Source: a virus
Lineage: Duplodnaviria > Caudoviricetes
Reading direction: 5' to 3' (one strand)
Virus record (IMG/VR): IMGVR_UViG_2974690805_000001
Location: 5,472-69,471 of that record
DNA length: 64,000 nucleotides
The first letter of the stretch is position 1, and each line of letters starts with the position of its first letter. Shown here piece after piece: positions 3,077 through 63,972 of the stretch. The notes under the pieces are model-generated. The model ran no database searches, was not told where the DNA came from, and saw only the letters and a list, made by a program, of their open reading frames with translations. The position numbers and the translations under genes were made by a program.

Positions 3077-3316
3077 TCAGATCGAGCGGTAGACCCGAGC
3101 GATCGAGTAGGTCGTGTCGCCGACCTCGACCGCTGCGCGGGTGTAGGTCATGCCCTCGACCGGCGACAGCGAGACAACCGGGCTGTCGAGGTCGATCTCG
3201 CGGGCGGCGTCGCCGATCACGGTCGCAAGCTCGGCGACGGCGGCGTCGAAGGACTCGCCCGCGTAATGGGTGACGGCGATGTCGGCGCTCAGGGCGGTTG
3301 CGATGTACTCGATCAT
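3077..3316 (-). CDS. hypothetical protein (cassette gene 1)
   Basis: 79 aa ORF with GAGGAAGG RBS, downstream of repeat promoter. Confidence 0.8.
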   Translation of the reverse strand: MIEYIATALSADIAVTHYAGESFDAAVAELATVIGDAAREIDLDSPVVSLSPVEGMTYTRAAVEVGDTTYSIARVYRSI

Positions 3317-3386
3317 TTCTGCCTTCCTCGGCGGGTCTATCCCGCCTCACACAGACGAAGTTACCCGACGGCGTCGCACTTGTCAA
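3317..3386 (-). promoter_or_regulatory. repeat promoter-hairpin-RBS element, copy 1
   Basis: TTGACA-17-TAACTT, CGACGCCGTCG in spacer, GGCGGG-ATAGA-CCCGCC hairpin, GAGGAAGG. Confidence 0.92.
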
Positions 3387-3410
3387 CACCGCCGGGCAAT
3401 CCGCGTCAGA

Positions 3411-3740
3411 TCAGCACCAGACGACCTCGGCGCTGTGGGCGACGGCCCACTCGGCGAGTTCGTGCAACTCGCGCAGCCGTTCCTGCAAGTAGCCGGGGCG
3501 ACGAGCGCCCTCGACCATACGAGCGCCGGGGCCGACGTGCTCGTAAGACGGCATACCTTCGTCGCTCGGCGCGAGGGCGAGCGCCATGACGACGCGGCCC
3601 ATGAAGTCATCGGCGGTCGCCGAGCCGCACCAGCCGTCGGCGTCGAGGTCGATGCCGAGCGCATCGGCGACGAGCGCGGCGTTGCGGTTGCTCATGTTGA
3701 CGTCGAGGTCGGTGCCGTCGGCGTAGAAGGTGACGCTCAT
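3411..3740 (-). CDS. hypothetical protein (cassette gene 2)
   Basis: 109 aa ORF downstream of repeat promoter. Confidence 0.8.
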   Translation of the reverse strand: MSVTFYADGTDLDVNMSNRNAALVADALGIDLDADGWCGSATADDFMGRVVMALALAPSDEGMPSYEHVGPGARMVEGARRPGYLQERLRELHELAEWAVAHSAEVVWC

Positions 3741-3814
3741 GATGTGGCTCGCTTTCCGGCGGGTCCATCCCGCCTCACACGAACGAAGTTACCCGACGCT
3801 GTCGCAGTTGTCAA
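3741..3814 (-). promoter_or_regulatory. repeat promoter element, copy 2
   Basis: -35 at 3809-3814, -10 at 3786-3791, hairpin 3758-3774. Confidence 0.92.
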
Positions 3815-9573: not shown

Positions 9574-9924
9574 TCAGACCGAGCGGGCGAACTTCACGCC
9601 CTTGACGAACGCCATGAGTTCGCGCCGGGCGGCGACGACGCCCTCAAGCGAGCCGGTCGCCCAATAGCCGATGCAGTCGTCGGAAGTGCCGACGCGACCG
9701 GGATGAGGCAGGTACACCGACCAACGGCAATCGCTCAAATCCCAACCGTTTGCGCCGAGCTTGCCGTTGCCGATGTAGCCGACGGTGACCTTGCGGCTGT
9801 GGTCGGCGTCGGTCAGGCCGAGCAGTGCGTTGAGTTCGGCGACCTCGGCCTTGAGCAGTTCTTCCTGACGGGCGAAGGCGGCGGCGATGTCGGCGTCGGT
9901 GCGGGTGCGGGTCGTGGCGGTCAT
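9574..9924 (-). CDS. hypothetical protein (cassette gene 3)
   Basis: 116 aa ORF downstream of repeat promoter. Confidence 0.8.
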   Translation of the reverse strand: MTATTRTRTDADIAAAFARQEELLKAEVAELNALLGLTDADHSRKVTVGYIGNGKLGANGWDLSDCRWSVYLPHPGRVGTSDDCIGYWATGSLEGVVAARRELMAFVKGVKFARSV

Positions 9925-9994
9925 GTCTTCCTTCCTCGGCGGGTCGATCCCGCCTCACACGAATGAAGTTACCCGACGCTGTCGCACTTGTCAA
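9925..9994 (-). promoter_or_regulatory. repeat promoter element, copy 3
   Basis: -35 at 9989-9994, hairpin 9938-9954, GAGGAAGG. Confidence 0.92.
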
Positions 9995-29896: not shown

Positions 29897-31077
29897 TGAC
29901 GATCCGACTTCCCCTGCCCGGTCAGCCTCCGGTCGTCGCGATCAAAGTCGGCACGACCGACGTCAAGCAGTTCCGCATCGGCCAGACTCTCTACTGGTCG
30001 AAGTCGAGCGTGCGCGACCCCTTCGACCTCGACGGCTGGCTGCAAGGATGGATCAACGAGCTACAGAAGCTCGGCGGGCTGTTCGTCAACCCGTTCGGCG
30101 AACTGTTCGGCTCGATGGGCGACGAGTCGCCGCTCGGCTGGCTGGTCAACTTCACGCCCGGCAACTCGATCCTCGGCAGCCCCGGCACGCTCATCAGCGG
30201 CGTCGGCAACCTTGAAGACGCCTACTGCGCCGCGGTCGGCACCGTCGCCGACATCACTCGGGGCGACATCCCCGAGGGGCTGATCGGTCTGATCAACGGC
30301 CTGCCGATCATCGGCGAGGGCGGGCGCGAGTTGATCGAGGAACTGCTCGACTTCATCTTCGGCGGCGGCGACCCGGTGACGAACATCCTGTCGATCGTCG
30401 GGCAGGTGCCGATCGTGGGCGAACTCGGCGTCATGCTCGGCCTGCTGCCGAAGGCCGACGGCACCTTCAACGACCCGGTGAACTTCATCGTTGACGCCGC
30501 GGGCGAGGTCATCGGCAAGATCACCTGCGGCGAGTGGCAGCCCAACGAGGGCACTGGCGGCGAGATGAACTTCGTGATCGGCGTGCAAGACGCCGCCGCT
30601 CGGATGTTCATCCCCGACGGGCTGGTCGGCATCGGCAAGCAGACCTCGCGATTCCGGCACCCGGCGCAGACCGTCGGCGACGACGGCTGGCTTGAGGTGC
30701 AGATCGACCAGATCGGCAGCCCCGGCTACGCGACGCAGGTCTTCCGGCGGTGGGCCAACGCTGGCGGCGCGAGCGGCGTCGGGATGGACTTCCGCGACGG
30801 CGTGGCCTCGATCGTGCGCCGCGTCGGCGGCACCGACACGATCATCCGGCCCGGCCTCGCCGCGATCGCCTCGGGCGACGTCTTCCGGCTGCACCAGGAA
30901 GGCAACTTGCACACGCTCATCAGGAACGGCAAGCCGGTCGGCGAGTGGCCCGACGACGCGGCGACGGCGGCGAAGGGCGCAGCGAACCGCTCGGTTGCGA
31001 TGGTCATGCAGGGCGCTCGCGAGCTTATGGGCGTGCGCCGGTACTCGCCGAGCCTCAACTACCTCGACGCGGCCTGA
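29896..31077 (+). CDS. minor tail protein
   Basis: TGATG overlap; last gene of virion operon. Confidence 0.7.
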   Translation: MTIRLPLPGQPPVVAIKVGTTDVKQFRIGQTLYWSKSSVRDPFDLDGWLQGWINELQKLGGLFVNPFGELFGSMGDESPLGWLVNFTPGNSILGSPGTLISGVGNLEDAYCAAVGTVADITRGDIPEGLIGLINGLPIIGEGGRELIEELLDFIFGGGDPVTNILSIVGQVPIVGELGVMLGLLPKADGTFNDPVNFIVDAAGEVIGKITCGEWQPNEGTGGEMNFVIGVQDAAARMFIPDGLVGIGKQTSRFRHPAQTVGDDGWLEVQIDQIGSPGYATQVFRRWANAGGASGVGMDFRDGVASIVRRVGGTDTIIRPGLAAIASGDVFRLHQEGNLHTLIRNGKPVGEWPDDAATAAKGAANRSVAMVMQGARELMGVRRYSPSLNYLDAA

Positions 31078-31280
31078 GCGCGGCGCTGCGGGCGCTGTAC
31101 GGCCCGCTGCCGCTCGATCTCGGCCTGCTTGCGCATCAGGGCCAGACCGAGGAACACGCCGCCGAGAAGGGCGCAGGCGAAGCCGTCGGTCATCTTGGTC
31201 GCACCGACGAGCATCAGCACGCCGACCGTGGCGAGGAACCACGGCGCGGCGGTGCTGAGCGTCGGCTGCCAGCGGTACAT
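31059..31280 (-). CDS. small membrane protein
   Basis: Two TM segments, basic tail. Confidence 0.7.
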   Translation of the reverse strand: MYRWQPTLSTAAPWFLATVGVLMLVGATKMTDGFACALLGGVFLGLALMRKQAEIERQRAVQRPQRRAQAASR

Positions 31281-31490
31281 CTACTGCGCCCGCGGGCCGT
31301 GCCAGCCGCGACCGGGGCGCGAAGCAATCCACGCCTCGACCGTCTCGGGCAGCCAGCCGCGCTTACCGCCGACCTCGGCGTCGTGGGGCGGCAACTGGCT
31401 GTGATCGAGCGAGCGGCGCGACTTGAGGCCGAGGCGCTCGGCGATCTGGCTCGCGCTCATGTAGATCGCGACCTGTCGTGGCTGCGTCAT
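31281..31490 (-). CDS. excisionase/AlpA-like HTH DNA-binding protein
   Basis: YMSASQIAERLGL...LPPHDAEVGGKRGWLPETVEAW; GAAAGG RBS. Confidence 0.75.
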   Translation of the reverse strand: MTQPRQVAIYMSASQIAERLGLKSRRSLDHSQLPPHDAEVGGKRGWLPETVEAWIASRPGRGWHGPRAQ

Positions 31491-31867
31491 GCTGACCTTT
31501 CGTTCGGCTGTTCCCCGACAAGGGTAAGTGATGCGGGTGCGTTCGCGATGACGACGGCGCGGCGGGCGATCGAGCGTTCCCACTCGCGACGCGGGTCGGT
31601 GTCGACGGTGATCGTCGGGCCGTCGCCGCCGGGCCAAGTCTCGATCGTCTCGATCAGGTGGTCGACCTTGTCATCGAACTCGGCGACGACCTTCTCGATC
31701 GAGTCGATCAGGCCGGGCGGGCACTGGTCGACGCTGTTCTCGACGCGCTGGTAGCTGCGGCGGTCCATCCCGAGGCGCTTCGCCATACCGCGCTGCGACA
31801 GACCGAGGTAGGCGCGGTGCGCCGCGATCAGTTCGCCGTAGCCGTCGGCGTAGGTTGCGGGCTTCAT
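31487..31867 (-). CDS. XRE-family HTH DNA-binding protein
   Basis: HRAYLGLSQRGMAKRLGMDRRSYQRVE. Confidence 0.8.
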   Translation of the reverse strand: MKPATYADGYGELIAAHRAYLGLSQRGMAKRLGMDRRSYQRVENSVDQCPPGLIDSIEKVVAEFDDKVDHLIETIETWPGGDGPTITVDTDPRREWERSIARRAVVIANAPASLTLVGEQPNERSA

Positions 31868-31943
31868 GGTCTGTGGTTCCTGTCTGTGATGTTGGCCCCG
31901 GCCCGCTGTGGTGCGGGCCGGGGCGGTGGTCAAGGGCGGTCGG

Positions 31944-32756
31944 TCACCAGCCGACCTTGCGGGCGCAGACCGGGCCGATGCCGCGCTCGCGGCTGTCATC
32001 GTTGGTCAACTGCCGACCGCAGATGCCGCACTCGCCGATCTCGTGACCGTAGCGGGCGCTCGCGGCCTCGGCACCGACCTCGGCGATCCGGTCGATGATC
32101 TTGTGACCCTGCGCCTTGCCGAGGCGCTGCTCGTCGTCGCCGACGATGTGCTTGACGAAGACGAAGCCTGCCCACTTGCCCGACTCGGGGCGGTCGACCC
32201 GGTAGAAGGCGACCTCGTTGATCGCGCCCTCGGCGGTGTCGATCGCGTAGCGACCGGCGGGCACCTCGTCGCTGCGGTAGCTGGTGACCTCGGGCGCAGC
32301 CGCGGCGGCGATCTTGTCGATCGCCTCGCTGCGATCGAACGCCGCCTCGACCTCGCGAGCCTGCGACTTGAAGGGCTGCGCGGCCAGCCACTCGATCAGC
32401 TTCGACGCGCCCTGCTTGGTCAGCACCGCGTAGGCGAACTCGTAGCCGGGGCGGGCATCGGCGACGAGCAGGGCGAGCACCCGGTTGACCCGAACGCCGA
32501 GGTCGGCGTCGTCGGCGACGGCGGCACGAAGCGCGGCGTTGTCGGCGGGCACCGGAATCTCGCCGGTCACGAAGGCGAAGACGACGTGCAGCGCGGCGAC
32601 GCGGCTGACGTACTTCGGCTGATCGGCGACGTTCGCGTCGCTGTTCCAAGCGCGGTCGCGGATCATCGGCACGATCGCCCGCTCGATCTGAGCGGCGGTC
32701 GCGGGCGTGACGAACTGGTCAGCGGCCTCGGGCTGGTGCATGAACGGAGTTCCCAT
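31944..32756 (-). CDS. hypothetical protein with C-terminal DUF6011-like zinc motif (cassette gene 4)
   Basis: CGICGRQLTNDDSRERGIGPVC; ATG 32756 follows GAGGAAGG of repeat element. Confidence 0.75.
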   Translation of the reverse strand: MGTPFMHQPEAADQFVTPATAAQIERAIVPMIRDRAWNSDANVADQPKYVSRVAALHVVFAFVTGEIPVPADNAALRAAVADDADLGVRVNRVLALLVADARPGYEFAYAVLTKQGASKLIEWLAAQPFKSQAREVEAAFDRSEAIDKIAAAAAPEVTSYRSDEVPAGRYAIDTAEGAINEVAFYRVDRPESGKWAGFVFVKHIVGDDEQRLGKAQGHKIIDRIAEVGAEAASARYGHEIGECGICGRQLTNDDSRERGIGPVCARKVGW

Positions 32757-32826
32757 TTCTACCTTCCTCGGCGGGTCCATCCCGCCTCACACGAACGAAG
32801 TTACCCGACGCCGTCGGTAATGTCAA
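32757..32826 (-). promoter_or_regulatory. repeat promoter element, copy 4
   Basis: -35 at 32821-32826, CGACGGCGTCG, hairpin 32770-32786. Confidence 0.92.
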
Positions 32827-38899: not shown

Positions 38900-39261
38900 C
38901 ACTGGTCGCCCGCGTACACGACGCCGCTGTCTTCGTAGCTGCACTCGGGCCACAACTCGCGCAGGTTGCACCGCTCGTAGACGTCCTCGTCAACCTCGAC
39001 GGTGCCGACCCACTCGGGATTGCTCAGGTCGGTGACTTCCAGCCGCCATTCCTCGGGCCAGAAGATCGGGTAGCCGGGCGTGCTGATGCACGACGGCGGG
39101 TTACCCGAGCACGACGTCGTGCCGGGCATCCACTGCATCCACGCGGGCGTGTAGCGGGCGTCGGTGACGGTGCCGCGCTCGGGCACCGGCTGGTCGCCGC
39201 CGCACGCCGCGAGCAGGCTCACGGCGGCGGCAGCGGCGGCGAGGACGGGTGCGCGGCGCAT
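38899..39261 (-). CDS. lipoprotein
   Basis: MRRAPVLAAAAAAVSLLAAC lipobox. Confidence 0.7.
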   Translation of the reverse strand: MRRAPVLAAAAAAVSLLAACGGDQPVPERGTVTDARYTPAWMQWMPGTTSCSGNPPSCISTPGYPIFWPEEWRLEVTDLSNPEWVGTVEVDEDVYERCNLRELWPECSYEDSGVVYAGDQ

Positions 39262-40949
39262 CAGTTCTCGATCCCGCGGTCGAGCACCTTGCTCGCGAAC
39301 TTGATGCTGATCTCGTCGCTCAGCCGAGCCTTCGTCATATCGGCGTAGCCGACGATGCGCATCGAGCGGGCGAGGTTCAACTGCGCCTGCGACGGCGGCT
39401 GATTGCGACGCCACGACGAGCCGCGGTCAGGCAACTGCTGGCCCGATTCCACGATCCACACCTCGGCGGCTTCCAGCGCCTCGGGCAGGTCGACGTACTC
39501 GGGCGAGTCGACTTTGTAGCGGCCCGAGCCGGTGACCCAACCGCCGCGCCCGGTGCGCGTGTTGATCTGGCCGACCGCCCATGTGGTGCGCTCGTCGCCG
39601 CGGGGCCGAACGCCGTCCTTCGGCCAGACGAAGACGATCTCGCCGGGGTTGGCCTTGTCGATCAGATTGATGAACGGCACGCCCTTCGGCGTTTCCAGCC
39701 ACAACGTCGTGTCATTGGCGAGCAGGTCGATCGTCACCATATCGACCGGCCCCTGACGCACGACCTTCGGCTCAGGCTCAACGATCGGCTCGACGTCCTG
39801 CGGCTCGATCTCGTTGCCCTGCTCATCGACCTCGGTGACCTCGGCCCCGGTGTCGAGTTGGGTCAGGTTGACGAGCTTCATGTGCCGCGCCGACCCGGCC
39901 AGATCGAGCACCAGCGCGTCGGTCTTGCCGGGATGCAGGCGCAGCGCCCGCCCGATCATCTGCGAGTAGAGGTTCTTCGACCGCGTGGGGCGGGCGAGCA
40001 CCACGGCGTCGCACATCGGGAAGTCAGCGCCCTCGGTGAGCACCTGCACCGTGACGAGCGCCTTCGCCTCGCCGTCGCGGAAGGCGGCATAGATCGGCTT
40101 GCGCGACTCGTAGCTCATCGCGCCGGTCACCGCGATCGCCGGGAAGTCGGCCTCGGTCAGCGCCTCGGCGATGTGGTGCGCGGCGTCGACCGAGGCGGCG
40201 AAGATGATCGGCGTGCGGTCGGTCGCGTGCAGCTTGATCGCGTCGACAACGTAGTCGGTCGCGGCTTCCATGACCTCGGCGAGTTCCTTCTGATGGAAGT
40301 CACCGGCGACGTTGCGCACATCGTTGAGGGCGTTGAGTCCCTTGATGCGCACGGTCAGGCCGCGGGGCTGCACCAGGAAGCCTTTGCGGATCGCCCACTT
40401 GATGTCCTTCTCGTAGGCGATCGACTCGATGACGTCGCCGAGGCCGATGACGCCGCGCTCGTTGCGGTACATCGTGGCGGTGAAGCCAGCCATGAGCGCG
40501 TCGTCGTAGCCGCCCAACTCGCGAAACGTCGTGTGGAAGCCCTCGGCCCCGGCGTGATGCACCTCATCCCAATAGATGCGGGTGCGCTGGCCGAGCGCCC
40601 GACGGCGGTGCGCGGTGGCGAGGGTCTGCAACGTCGCGAAGACGATCGGCGCGTCGTGGTCGTCTTCCTCGGCCCGCACGATGCCGGTCTTGTCGGCGAG
40701 TTCGGGTGCGACGGCGATGAAGTCGCGGCGCATCTGGTCGCAGAGTTCGCCGCGGTGCGCCATAGCGAGCACCGGCTCGCCTGCGTAGAAGTCGCGTCGG
40801 ATGCGCTCGCCGATGACGGTCGACTTACCCGAGCCGGTCGGAAGGACGACGCCGGTACGGCGCTTGCCCTTCGCCCACTCGCGTTCGACGGCGTCAGCGG
40901 CCTCGATCTGGTAGTCGCGTAGCTGTCGCGGCTCAACGGTCAAGGTCAT
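39261..40949 (-). CDS. SF2 DNA helicase
   Basis: LPTGSGKS, DEVHH, GFTAT, QMIGRALR motifs. Confidence 0.92.
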   Translation of the reverse strand: MTLTVEPRQLRDYQIEAADAVEREWAKGKRRTGVVLPTGSGKSTVIGERIRRDFYAGEPVLAMAHRGELCDQMRRDFIAVAPELADKTGIVRAEEDDHDAPIVFATLQTLATAHRRRALGQRTRIYWDEVHHAGAEGFHTTFRELGGYDDALMAGFTATMYRNERGVIGLGDVIESIAYEKDIKWAIRKGFLVQPRGLTVRIKGLNALNDVRNVAGDFHQKELAEVMEAATDYVVDAIKLHATDRTPIIFAASVDAAHHIAEALTEADFPAIAVTGAMSYESRKPIYAAFRDGEAKALVTVQVLTEGADFPMCDAVVLARPTRSKNLYSQMIGRALRLHPGKTDALVLDLAGSARHMKLVNLTQLDTGAEVTEVDEQGNEIEPQDVEPIVEPEPKVVRQGPVDMVTIDLLANDTTLWLETPKGVPFINLIDKANPGEIVFVWPKDGVRPRGDERTTWAVGQINTRTGRGGWVTGSGRYKVDSPEYVDLPEALEAAEVWIVESGQQLPDRGSSWRRNQPPSQAQLNLARSMRIVGYADMTKARLSDEISIKFASKVLDRGIEN

Positions 40950-41062
40950 GGCCCTGTCTCTCGGTGGTCGTGGTGCGTGTGAGTGTGAGTGTTGGTGTGC
41001 CAGTCGCTCGGGGTCGCCGAGCGACCGGCAGCACCTACGTTAGCCGACGGTGTCGGACTTGT

Positions 41063-41518
41063 CTACTGCGACTTCTGCGGTGCCTTCGACTGGTCGAGCT
41101 TGACGACGCCGAGCATGTCGCGGTGGCCCTCGATGAAGCCCGTCTCGGCCAGCACGCGCCGGATGTCGGGCGGCTTCCAGCCCTCGGGCTTGAGAATCTT
41201 GCCGTCGTCGCGGCGGGCCACGGTGCCGTCCTCGCCGATCTTGGCGAGGTTCGACCGGAACACCTCGCGGCACACCTCGCGGGCGGCGTCCTCGCCGAAG
41301 TAGGCGAGCAGCGTGCCGTAGGCGATCACGATCATGTCGGCCAGCCCGTCGGCGATCTCGACCGGGTCGTCGCGATCTTCGCCGTCGAAGTATTCCTCGA
41401 CTTCCTCGGCGAGCAGGTTGCGACGCAGCTTGCGCAGGTCGAGATCGCTCAGCCCGTTCGCGAACGTCTGCCCGCTGGCGGTCATGAAGTCGGCGGTTGC
41501 GTCGAGGATGTTGGTCAT
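41063..41518 (-). CDS. MazG-like nucleotide pyrophosphohydrolase
   Basis: EEVEE..EIADGLAD..SNLAK..GKILKP. Confidence 0.8.
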   Translation of the reverse strand: MTNILDATADFMTASGQTFANGLSDLDLRKLRRNLLAEEVEEYFDGEDRDDPVEIADGLADMIVIAYGTLLAYFGEDAAREVCREVFRSNLAKIGEDGTVARRDDGKILKPEGWKPPDIRRVLAETGFIEGHRDMLGVVKLDQSKAPQKSQ

Positions 41519-44771: not shown

Positions 44772-44972
44772 CTATGCCGACTGCCGGTCGTCGTGCAACT
44801 GGCCCCTAGATGTTGTGGTGTGCAGCGCGTCGAGACACTGCATCTGGGACTTGCGCCGGTTGGCGAGCCGCACGCCGCGACCGATCAGCATCTTGTGCAT
44901 CGGGTCGAGCGTGCGCTCGCGGTGCAGCCCGCAGGTGCAGCCGGGCGGGCAGCGGTGGCCCTTGGCAGGCAT
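44772..44972 (-). CDS. hypothetical protein
   Basis: TGATG overlap; HRCPPGCTCGLH. Confidence 0.6.
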   Translation of the reverse strand: MPAKGHRCPPGCTCGLHRERTLDPMHKMLIGRGVRLANRRKSQMQCLDALHTTTSRGQLHDDRQSA

Positions 44973-45835
44973 CAGCGATCACCTCGCTGCGCGATCTCGC
45001 CACCGAGGGCGGCGTAGCCGCAGATGTCGACCCATGAGTCAGCGTGATCGGGCGAGGCGACGAGGCGGCTGACCTTGAGCAGCGTCAGGCACAGCGCGAC
45101 CTGCTCGGGCATGATGTCGACGCCGATCACCTCGGACCAGAGCCGGGCCAGCCGCGAGAAGGACTCGGTCGCGTCGCCGTAGCTCGCCTGCCGGTCGCCG
45201 CAGATCAGCGACTTTGCGGTGTCGAGCACGACCTCGCGGGGCTGCGGGACGGCGGCACCGAGGCCGCAGTCGACCGCCTCGGCCCACTTCATGTCCGAGG
45301 CGAAGGTGCCGTCGTCGGGCACCTCGATCCCGATGTTGCCGGTGCCCTCGCCCGAGTAGGTGGTCGACCACTCGGCGGTCATCGGGTTAGTGCGCGGGTC
45401 GCAGGGCTTGTCGTCGCACTCGGGGCTGCCGTGGTGCTCATGCGGCTCGCGGATGTCACAGAAGGCGACGTGACAGACCGGGCCGGGCAGCGTGCCGGTG
45501 AACTTCTCACCCGGCGCAGGCCGCGGCATCGAGGTCGTCGGCCCGCCCGGCTGCTCGGCCTGCGACAGCGGGTCGCGATGCGCCCTCGACTCGGCGGTGA
45601 ACGGGTGCGTGTCGGCCTTGCAGCCCGGCCTGATCAGCGGCGAGTGCGGCAGACAGATGCACGGCTCGGACTCGTTGCCGGTGCGCACCTTCTCGGTCTT
45701 GCGGGCGGCGACGTCGCGGTAGTGCGGGTGCCGGTTGGCATCGCTGCCGTGCAGGCGGCACTCGCTGTTCGGCTTGCCGACGTCGAGCAGTTCGGGGTCG
45801 CAGGTGCAGCGCGGCGGCTGATTGTGATCGGTCAT
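44972..45835 (-). CDS. DUF6378-like domain protein with Cys/His-rich N-terminus
   Basis: DRQASYGD..F..A.LW..LKVSRL..DSWVDICGYAA. Confidence 0.7.
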   Translation of the reverse strand: MTDHNQPPRCTCDPELLDVGKPNSECRLHGSDANRHPHYRDVAARKTEKVRTGNESEPCICLPHSPLIRPGCKADTHPFTAESRAHRDPLSQAEQPGGPTTSMPRPAPGEKFTGTLPGPVCHVAFCDIREPHEHHGSPECDDKPCDPRTNPMTAEWSTTYSGEGTGNIGIEVPDDGTFASDMKWAEAVDCGLGAAVPQPREVVLDTAKSLICGDRQASYGDATESFSRLARLWSEVIGVDIMPEQVALCLTLLKVSRLVASPDHADSWVDICGYAALGGEIAQRGDR

Positions 45836-45864
45836 TGTGGTTGTGTCCCTTCGCATTTCGGTCG

Positions 45865-49156: not shown

Positions 49157-49235
49157 GATTCCCCTTCGTGGTTGTGCGGCGGGTCGATCCCGCCTACGGG
49201 TAACCAAAGTAACCGACGCTGTCGGGTCAGCGCAA
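49157..49235 (-). promoter_or_regulatory. degenerate repeat promoter element (hybrid copy)
   Basis: Keeps CGACAGCGTCG and GGCGGG-ATCGA-CCCGCC; altered -35/-10; gains GGTTACC and CACAACCACGAAGG. Confidence 0.7.
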
Positions 49236-56366: not shown

Positions 56367-56437
56367 GATTCTCGCTTTCCGGCGGGTCGATCCCGCCTCA
56401 CACGAACGAAGTTACCCGACTGCGCCGCATTAGTCAA
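56367..56437 (-). promoter_or_regulatory. repeat promoter element, copy 5
   Basis: TTGACT -35 at 56432-56437; hairpin 56381-56397. Confidence 0.9.
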
Positions 56438-56696: not shown

Positions 56697-56784
56697 GGTG
56701 ACCTTCTCTCTGTAGTTTTCAACTTCGGCGGGTTGCTTCCCGCCTGACACAGATAAAGTTACCCGACAGCGTCGTAGTTGTCAA
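56697..56784 (-). promoter_or_regulatory. repeat promoter element, copy 6
   Basis: -35 at 56779-56784; 6-nt hairpin loop; longer leader. Confidence 0.88.
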
Positions 56785-60386: not shown

Positions 60387-60457
60387 GATTCTCGCTTCCC
60401 GGCGGGTCTTTCCCGCCTCACATGAATTAAGTTACCCGACCGAGTCGCACTTGTCAA
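60387..60457 (-). promoter_or_regulatory. repeat promoter element, copy 7
   Basis: -35 at 60452-60457. Confidence 0.92.
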
Positions 60458-60727: not shown

Positions 60728-60797
60728 TTCTGCCTTCCCCGGCGGGTCGATCCCGCCTCACACGAACGAAGTTACCCGACTGCGTCGGGCTTGTCAA
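60728..60797 (-). promoter_or_regulatory. repeat promoter element, copy 8
   Basis: -35 at 60792-60797. Confidence 0.92.
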
Positions 60798-61568: not shown

Positions 61569-61643
61569 GGCCTTCGGCCCCTTCCCGGCGGGTATTTCCC
61601 GCCTCACACGAATGAAGTTACCCGACTGCGTCGGCTTTGTCAA
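61569..61643 (-). promoter_or_regulatory. repeat promoter element, copy 9
   Basis: -35 at 61638-61643. Confidence 0.92.
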
Positions 61644-62061: not shown

Positions 62062-62132
62062 TTCTGCCTTCCTCGGCGGGTCCATCCCGCCTCAACACAG
62101 ACGAAGTTACCCGACTGCGTCGCACTTGTCAA
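62062..62132 (-). promoter_or_regulatory. repeat promoter element, copy 10
   Basis: -35 at 62127-62132. Confidence 0.92.
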
Positions 62133-62302: not shown

Positions 62303-62508
62303 GACCGCTCGGGCGAGCGGCCATAGGTGCCGCCGCTCTGGTAGTAGCGGTCGATCGCGACGCTGAGCTTGTTGATCGTGCCCTGCATCAGCCGAGCGGC
62401 CTCAAGGGCGTCGTCGCTGCCGTCGGCCCGCAGCACGACCTGCGCCTGCGCGAGGCGCTGCCGGTTGCGCGTGGCCCGCTGCACGGCGGTCTTCGTTGCG
62501 ATGATCAC
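62299..62508 (-). CDS. hypothetical protein
   Basis: GTGA overlap. Confidence 0.65.
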   Translation of the reverse strand: MIIATKTAVQRATRNRQRLAQAQVVLRADGSDDALEAARLMQGTINKLSVAIDRYYQSGGTYGRSPERS

Positions 62509-62870
62509 GGCTCGATCACCTCAAACTCGCGCCGGAACAGGCACAGCCGCTTGCCGTAGGCGAACAGGATGCAGTAGGTGCCCGAGGTCGGCGTCAGGCC
62601 GGGCAGAACGGCGGTGATCTGGCCGCGCCGCCCGTCAGCAACCACGACGTCGCCGCGGAACGCCTCGCAGGTCTTGCCGCCGCCGTCGGCGAGGCGGGCG
62701 TCGATCGCCGCCTGCGCGGCCTGCTGGCCGTCCCACTTCGCGTCGCGGTGACTCGGCCCCTCGACGCCGGGGCCGCTGACGGTCCAGAACTTGCCGGATA
62801 GCTCGCTGCGCTTCACGGTGTACGGCCCGGCCAGATATGCACCCGTCTGCGGGTGCCGCTTCCACTTCAT
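62505..62870 (-). CDS. hypothetical protein
   Basis: ATGA overlap. Confidence 0.7.
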   Translation of the reverse strand: MKWKRHPQTGAYLAGPYTVKRSELSGKFWTVSGPGVEGPSHRDAKWDGQQAAQAAIDARLADGGGKTCEAFRGDVVVADGRRGQITAVLPGLTPTSGTYCILFAYGKRLCLFRREFEVIEP

Positions 62871-63264: not shown

Positions 63265-63338
63265 GATCTCGATCCTTCCTCGGCGGGTCCATCCCGCCTC
63301 ACACGAACTAATTTACCCGACTGCGTCGCACTTGTCAA
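63265..63338 (-). promoter_or_regulatory. repeat promoter element, copy 11
   Basis: -35 at 63333-63338; -10 TAAATT. Confidence 0.92.
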
Positions 63339-63551: not shown

Positions 63552-63622
63552 GGTGACCCCTTTCCGGCGGGTATTTCCCGCCTCACATGAATTAAGTTAC
63601 CCGACGGCGTCGTAGTTGTCAA
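63552..63622 (-). promoter_or_regulatory. repeat promoter element, copy 12
   Basis: -35 at 63617-63622. Confidence 0.92.
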
Positions 63623-63643
63623 GCGACGCCGCCGGGCCGGTCG

Positions 63644-63901: not shown

Positions 63902-63972
63902 GATTCTCGCTTCCCGGCGGGTACTTCCCGCCTCACACAGACGAAGTTACCCGACGCTGTCGTAGTTGTCAA
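63902..63972 (-). promoter_or_regulatory. repeat promoter element, copy 13
   Basis: -35 at 63967-63972. Confidence 0.92.

Follow-up and report, generated by a model that had tools for sequence, protein, structure and literature searches.

The DNA considered here raises the question why one short palindrome recurs between the −35 and −10 hexamers of promoter after promoter in a phage genome, and which protein, if any, reads it. The stretch analysed, hereafter the window, comprises 64 kb and corresponds to bases 5472-69471 of a 69,471-bp linear virus record (IMGVR_UViG_2974690805_000001; 68.7% G+C). The phage is a lytic, integrase-free mycobacteriophage of Cluster B; a comparison with the phage collection places it nearest to Cluster B mycobacteriophages (subfamily Bclasvirinae), and neither the tyrosine nor the serine integrase profile (PF00589 and PF00239) was detected in the whole genome, in agreement with an initial annotation, made from the sequence alone, that had seen no integrase. 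The promoters belong to a repeated cassette, in which about 11 nucleotides (nt) separate each copy from a GGCGGG-N5-CCCGCC hairpin; after the hairpin come a ribosome-binding site rich in purines and the start codon. Drawing on sequence, a structure model and analogy, we tentatively propose, at somewhat less than even confidence, that the spacer palindrome is a protein operator and that a phage-encoded XRE-type helix-turn-helix (HTH) protein would repress all cassette promoters through it, its own included.

The palindrome CGACNNNGTCG occurs 24 times in the window, compared with 9.0 ± 3.4 times in shuffled sequences, none of which reached 24. Half of these occurrences (12 of 24) sit within a 29-nt element, TTGACA-N4-CGAC-N3-GTCGGG-TAANTT, always on the minus strand, and the approximately ten remaining ones equal the chance expectation; when up to three mismatches are allowed, the element has 14 matches in the window vs. 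0 expected. Altogether the promoters number about 16, namely the 12 minus-strand copies, one copy with an arm mismatch, two degenerate copies that keep the palindrome and one copy outside the window. The 12 copies present, by sequence, the hexamers and the spacing of the host sigma factor SigA (sigma-70 type), i.e., TTGACA, 17 nt and TAACTT, which fits TANNNT. Because TAACTT agrees with TATAAT at only three of six positions, the cassettes are overlooked by a simple promoter scan.

The dyad fills the spacer between the two hexamers, and its right arm extends into the first base of the −10 hexamer. When 14 copies are aligned from −35 to −10, variation is confined to spacer nt 2-4 and to the three centre nt, all other positions being invariant or nearly so. 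The initial annotation had described a spacer that retains CGAC and GTCG around a free 3-nt centre; the 12 exact copies and the 14-copy alignment bear this out, and exactly the same set of centre triplets was recovered (GGC, GCT, GCC, AGC, CGA, and TGC on the plus strand). A single copy with an arm mismatch exists, as had been stated; the position then given for it, 56367, labels the whole cassette, and the imperfect palindrome itself lies at 56417-56427. Two further promoters with decayed hexamers (41037-41065 and 49207-49235) retain the palindrome with 5-bp arms, which argues that it is selected for its own sake. It could also be that the dyad has no dedicated regulator: its bases might serve the promoter, for instance through contacts of host RNA polymerase, SigA, RbpA or CarD upstream of the −10 hexamer, or the cassettes might be kept alike by copying or recombination, with the symmetry left over from quasi-palindrome mutation. 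We regard this as rather unlikely. Cassette copies are more alike within a genome than between genomes, which points to concerted evolution. However, variable and invariant positions alternate every 3-4 nt in the 14 aligned copies, too finely for gene-conversion tracts alone to explain the spacer pattern; contacts of RNA polymerase explain neither dyad symmetry nor the free 3-nt centre; the left arm CGAC is invariant though far from the −10 hexamer; and at 41037 and 49207 the palindrome has outlasted the hexamers. These features support the view that the palindrome behaves as a selected, operator-like site with fixed arms and a free centre.

It is extremely improbable that the palindrome acts by folding, be it in read-through RNA or supercoiled DNA, into a hairpin or cruciform. 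Its free 3-nt centre would have the minimum loop length, and a genuine hairpin, with a loop that varies, does exist next to it in the leader. However, the 29-nt promoter, folded as RNA, reaches −3 to −6.5 kcal/mol with z of +1.3 to −0.9, a hairpin in RNA or DNA being no more stable than shuffled sequence, and the arms in most relatives contain a fixed internal mismatch.

The cassette was followed through 16 genomes in total, the source phage and 15 relatives, namely Orion (B1), Ares (B2), Phaedrus (B3), Cooper and Fortunato (B4), Acadian and EastView9101 (B5), BirdsNest, Zenteno07, LilMcDreamy, Saguaro, Knocker, Funsized, Gordonia phage NHagos and Tsukamurella phage TPA2; these genomes are mutually related, and agreement among them amounts to fewer than 16 independent observations. 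Saguaro is the closest record in the phage collection, with ~75% identity across parts of the query, and several hundred B1 phages match short stretches. The cassette is present in all relatives, with 2-13 copies per genome as counted by a strict filter that demanded an exact GGCGGG/CCCGCC leader and under-counts diverged copies. The family form is a 7-3-7 quasi-dyad with a free centre, ACCCGMC-N3-GKCGGGT, extended to (T)ACCCGMC-N3-GKCGGGT(A), of which the source phage keeps only the inner arms. When complementary pairs were counted about every possible axis, the best dyad axis fell on spacer nt 10 in 13 of the 14 mycobacteriophage genomes; in most dyad-bearing genomes the score drops two- to five-fold once the axis is moved by 1-2 nt, and in 8 of the first 11 genomes the symmetry about nt 10 lies far above that of the shifted axes. 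Counted outward from the centre, pairs 2-5 are complementary in the source phage and pairs 2, 4, 5, 6, and 7 in most others. Conservation of arms and centre among relatives had been put forward as a check by the initial annotation: axis and free centre do recur, and CGAC-N3-GTCG itself turns out to be the form of one lineage. Its suggestion that conserved arms around a free centre mark an operator-like site gains from the recurring axis, from the survival of the palindrome beside decayed hexamers and from a hairpin no more stable than shuffles.

The arms are not kept in the same way everywhere. LilMcDreamy and Acadian keep CCCGCC and GTCGGG around a free centre, and B3 and the Knocker group keep mainly the outer pairs, with a TGn-like GG/TGG before TATTGT. 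The exchange of the right arm for this TGn-like sequence in B3, B2 and the Knocker group, with the cassette kept, is in favour of bases that serve the promoter rather than a regulator, as is the finding that, within the element, conservation is widest for the right arm together with the adjoining −10 hexamer (CGGGTAAsTT). Cooper holds CCCGAC-TAA-GGCGGG at one promoter and CCCGCC-TTA-GTCGGG, the exact reverse complement, at another, and three IMG/VR metagenome relatives hold TACCCGAC-TGA-CTCGGGTA plus its reverse complement; cores in both orientations are what quasi-palindrome template switching would yield. Within one genome the asymmetric core occurs both ways round (Cooper, IMG/VR loci) between outer arms that are symmetric, as though template switching, or recombination between the arms, had turned the centre over; such paired orientations inside symmetric arms, present in several genomes, also count in favour of an operator. 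In NHagos, the two cassettes hold the direct repeat ACACCGAC-N4-ACACCGAC in the spacer instead of a dyad.

Candidates for a binding protein are encoded directly behind one of the promoters, copy 4, which lies on the minus strand at 32798-32826 and consists of TTGACA, a 17-nt spacer with CCGAC-GGC-GTCGG, and TAACTT. All genes of the operon that follows are on the minus strand. The first (31944-32756) encodes 270 aa with a C-terminal DUF6011 cysteine motif (E 1.6e-14), its true start being the ATG at 32756 and not 32780; the second (31487-31867) encodes a 126-aa XRE-type HTH protein, with HTH_31 at 30.0 bits vs. a curated cut-off of 27; the third (31281-31490) encodes 69 aa with no Pfam match and with similarity to PHROG 597 “DNA binding protein” (E 2.8e-22), its start overlapping the XRE stop by 4 nt; and the last (31059-31280) encodes a likely membrane protein of 73 aa that is not conserved in the relatives examined. 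The succession of DUF6011, XRE and small putative winged-HTH genes behind one cassette is found in 16 of 16 genomes. The initial annotation had placed the first three of these genes behind copy 4, and this order holds; its label “excisionase-like” for the 69-aa protein rests on weak fold matches to MerR-type winged HTH proteins, and the operon is interrupted by a strong hairpin that may partly uncouple its parts. This stem-loop (31895-31924, minus strand), located between the DUF6011 and XRE genes, contains a G+C stem of 12 bp that is not followed by a U tract, folds at −37.8 kcal/mol (z −3.95) and could act as attenuator, processing site or stabiliser; because it separates the first two genes, the HTH genes may be attenuated relative to the DUF6011 gene.

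The XRE protein resembles the HTHs of the 434 repressor and of Cro by sequence, and HTH_31 is matched by all 46 of its XRE-family relatives. A word-based homologue search found three proteins and an exhaustive one 92, and a search with the single XRE protein among viral contigs found no related locus. A structure model built on the 46 relatives (predicted local distance difference test, pLDDT, 92.9) has whole-length matches only to Aca2, YdiL and SO3848 (Z 9.2-10.4, 101-119 residues aligned): the four Aca2 entries give VIA-align Z 9.7-10.2 at a root-mean-square deviation of 2.6-2.9 Å over 101-105 residues, YdiL Z 9.2 and SO3848 Z 10.4, and matches to the HTH domain only stay at Z ≤6.6. The protein is thus predicted to have the two-domain fold of Aca2, YdiL and SO3848, with an N-terminal HTH and a C-terminal alpha/beta domain. 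According to Usher et al. (PMC8434428), YdiL and SO3848 are the only PDB entries that match both Aca2 domains. Aca2 is further reported to form a dimer and, like Aca1, to recognise an inverted repeat over the −35/−10 region of its own strong promoter (PMC8434428; PMC6765145). A preprint on B1 phages calls the XRE protein (gp47) a putative repressor and notes many strong SigA-like promoters in the right arm, with the dyad unmentioned (10.1101/2023.05.30.542743).

From the observed sites, their selective conservation, their position within the promoters and the synteny of the operon, taken with the predicted fold, we infer the following course of events. About 16 near-identical promoters that fit the host SigA consensus would be active early, and one of them would drive the conserved operon that encodes the XRE protein of predicted Aca2 fold; the protein would be made early, would dimerise through its C-terminal domain and would bind the dyad, with the right arm reaching the first base of the −10 hexamer. 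Once bound, the dimer would shut RNA polymerase out of the promoter that drives its own gene and out of all remaining cassettes, and the outcome would be negative feedback on, or shut-off of, the strong early promoters. The lytic “timing switch” of the initial annotation would be one such role, with the timing, like the repression, presumed. Three observations speak for the XRE protein as repressor. The dyad occupies the very position in the promoter at which Aca1 and Aca2 repress (PMC8434428; PMC6765145); the XRE protein has the genome's one classical dimeric-repressor fold, and in every relative its gene stands behind a cassette; and in TPA2 the arms (TACCACC-N3-GTAGGTA, axis nt 11) and the XRE recognition helix have changed together, the leader hairpin having stayed the same.

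Several findings weigh against the XRE protein as the reader of the dyad. It is a candidate put forward from sequence and fold, and a similar fold is no proof of a similar function. No member of the XRE family (0 of 46) matches DUF1870, the Aca2 family, at E up to 1, and the XRE family profile reaches only E 0.13 against the Aca2 chain 7ezy. Of the left arm, no more than the inner 4 bp survive in the source phage, which puts its half-site centres ~7 bp apart, compared with ~10 bp in the TTCG-N6-CGAA site of Aca2 (PMC6765145). Pair 3 from the centre is never complementary in most relatives, which is odd for a simple homodimer site, and the right arm could be conserved for promoter function alone. 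Moreover, Ares (B2) has no dyad and carries an XRE recognition helix, DRRSYQR, identical to that of the source phage, and in a presence/absence comparison of all phage open reading frames between dyad-bearing and dyad-lacking genomes no DNA-binding gene follows the dyad. A tie between dyad type and D vs. S/T at position 4 of the XRE recognition helix was considered and is broken by Funsized. Finally, the 31895-31924 hairpin may partly uncouple both HTH genes from the cassette promoter. The claim of the initial annotation that one of the two HTH proteins binds the palindrome goes beyond these data, as dyad-less Ares shares the DRRSYQR helix.

The second HTH protein of the operon, the 69-aa putative MerR-type winged HTH protein, could be the binder, either with one monomer on each arm or in partnership with the XRE protein, which we consider improbable. 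All 16 genomes retain its gene, which overlaps the XRE stop codon, and the pair of XRE and 69-aa genes is also adjacent on two unrelated metagenome contigs. The nearest folds found by Foldseek comprise RacA, with a small winged HTH that binds a G+C-rich inverted repeat, as well as HiNmlR, MtaN, BldC and the RdfS excisionase; close 4-bp arms would suit small monomers more than an Aca2-like dimer, and the protein ends in a conserved basic RPGRG tail. However, confidence in the structure model is only moderate (pLDDT 74), known folds are matched weakly (template modelling score 0.47-0.55, E 0.04-0.6), the protein has no dimerisation domain, small proteins of such a fold often bind direct repeats or serve as recombination directionality factors, and the gene is equally conserved in Ares, which has no dyad. 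In NHagos, the homologues of the XRE and 69-aa proteins (genes 38 and 39) are both annotated “LamD-like protein,” a name that could not be traced to any study found.

The binder might also be a regulator of the host, or some further phage protein in which DNA binding cannot be recognised, such as the zinc-ribbon-like DUF6011 protein; this reading is likewise given a low probability. Such a reader would fit the observation that no phage gene follows the presence and absence of the dyad across genomes, and the DUF6011 protein, with its cysteine motif, is the first product of the conserved operon. A host regulator is, however, harder to reconcile with arms that vary among phages of the same host, M. 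smegmatis, which fits a co-evolving phage-encoded binder better. Two proteins without a DNA-binding signature show a related distribution: a 121-aa early protein (62505-62870, minus strand; PHROG 1332) occurs in the dyad-bearing relatives and in Knocker and was undetected in Ares (B2) and Phaedrus (B3), and a DUF6378 protein (44972-45856) is missing from B2 and B3.

The second conserved element of the cassette is the leader hairpin, which in copy 4 lies at 32770-32786 on the minus strand and abuts the ribosome-binding site and the ATG at 32756. One arm of the family promoter dyad (CCCGCC / GGCGGG) recurs, in everted order, as the hexamer of its stem. Rfam returned no family at threshold for the cassettes; RF03006 (M23 RNA) matched one cassette (63559-63631, minus strand) below threshold, with 23.8 bits vs. 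a gathering threshold of 41.2, and in Orion and Phaedrus RF03006 had no match at threshold. The 3′ half of the RF03006 model consists of a GGCGGG..CCCGCC hairpin followed by GGAAAGG and closely resembles the cassette leader with its ribosome-binding site. Aca2 has been shown to bind hairpins in its own 5′ untranslated region and thereby to block translation, and control by Aca proteins is predicted to reach as many as three neighbouring operons (PMC13551039). By analogy, the Aca2-fold protein might bind all ~16 spacer dyads as DNA and the leader hairpin GGCGGG-N5-CCCGCC as RNA, and would then cap both transcription and translation of many small early genes; we hold this extension to be doubtful, with little probability. 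One reader for both elements would fit, because the stem hexamer equals the dyad arm. TPA2, in which the leader hairpin is unchanged though the promoter arms differ, counts against a single reader. The capped early genes may in that case serve host takeover or anti-defence, with the DUF6011 gene in the place of the anti-CRISPR gene. M. smegmatis, the usual host, is not known to have CRISPR-Cas.

Among known systems the arrangement most resembles an acr-aca2 operon multiplied across a genome. The XRE model shares the two-domain fold of Aca2 from Pectobacterium phage ZF40 (Z about 10), its gene lies downstream of another gene in an operon with a strong consensus-like promoter and an inverted repeat over the −35/−10 region (CCGAC-GGC-GTCGG at 32798-32826), and in both systems a conserved hairpin in the 5′ untranslated region stands beside the ribosome-binding site. 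In contrast to Aca2, the XRE protein lacks a sequence match to DUF1870, ~16 promoters bear the site as compared with 1-3 for Aca, the half-sites of this phage differ in sequence and lie closer together, the upstream DUF6011 gene is not a known anti-CRISPR, and binding of DNA or RNA by the XRE protein is predicted by analogy. The 17-bp repeat of Cluster O mycobacteriophages, TGTTCGG-N3-CCGAACA, shows the same 7-3-7 geometry with invariant arms and a variable centre, and is likewise present in dozens of copies per genome and itself unexplained (PMC4351075). It has, however, another sequence, its sites are scattered between and inside genes rather than in promoter spacers, and its centre is mostly TTT or AAA. 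The stoperators of Cluster A also comprise many copies of a short site read by one phage repressor, with one site over an early promoter, yet they are asymmetric, 13-14 bp long, oriented with transcription and located within transcribed regions, compared with dyad-symmetric sites in spacers here, and the phages concerned are temperate, with a repressor that maintains lysogeny (PMC9262239). Phage 434 and lambda Cro share with the present system an XRE/Cro-type HTH, a dyad operator over early promoters and a protein made from the promoter that it would repress. Cro acts at two or three operator clusters, whereas here a single site is found in each of ~16 dispersed promoters, and the source phage has neither a partner repressor nor a lysogeny module.

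No description of the dyad was found in the literature searched, including PMC3029335 and PMC9262239; subscription papers were outside this search, so that an earlier account is possible. With >350 genomes, Cluster B ranks second in size among the groups of sequenced mycobacteriophages (PMC9262239); its members are lytic, and no study on the ordering of Cluster B gene expression was found. If a single small regulator does act through this site in all early promoters, this would explain how a phage without a repressor/integrase module tames a dozen or more promoters of consensus strength, and the reach of Aca-type control would grow from one to three operons to an entire genome. Furthermore, the cassette would offer mycobacterial genetics a compact, strong and repressible unit of promoter, leader and ribosome-binding site.

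The remaining copies are distributed over a genome whose gene order is that of the Saguaro annotation, with rightward structural genes followed by a small leftward operon beside lysin A, replication genes and a long leftward run of small right-end genes. All copies in the window are on the minus strand. Most lie towards the right end, at 56756-56784 (CGAC-GCT-GTCG), 60429-60457 (CGAC-TCG-GTCG), 60769-60797 (CCCGAC-GCA-GTCGGG), 61615-61643 (CCGAC-GCA-GTCGG), 62104-62132 (CGAC-GCA-GTCG), 63310-63338 (CGAC-GCA-GTCG, with −10 TAAATT), 63594-63622 (CGAC-GCC-GTCG) and 63944-63972 (CGAC-AGC-GTCG). Copy 4 was described as having the longest symmetric arms in this phage, yet the copy at 60769-60797 is listed with arms of 6 bp. 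The copy with the arm mismatch (56409-56437) reads CGGC-GCA-GTCG, CGGC replacing CGAC on the minus strand, and has TTGACT as −35 hexamer. Of the two promoters with decayed hexamers, the diverged one at 41037-41065 (TAGACA ... TAACGT) keeps CCGAC-ACC-GTCGG, has a different leader and stands ahead of a gene for 562 aa (39261-40949), and the degenerate one at 49207-49235 (TTGCGC ... TTACTT) keeps CCGAC-AGC-GTCGG as well as the leader hairpin and heads the long leftward replication operon. The extra copy outside the window, at genome positions 3233-3261 in the 5.4 kb that the window does not cover, is identical to 63944-63972 and is followed by a different leader hairpin of the CTCGGG-N5-CCCGAG type. 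The copies at 3358-3386 (CGAC-GCC-GTCG), 3786-3814 (CGAC-AGC-GTCG) and 9966-9994 (CGAC-AGC-GTCG) complete the set. Three cassettes drive small leftward genes (window 3077-3740 and 9574-9924) that lie antisense amid the rightward virion structural genes, and in relatives cassettes are found at comparable places of the structural region, e.g., near 17.0 and 20.1 kb in Orion.

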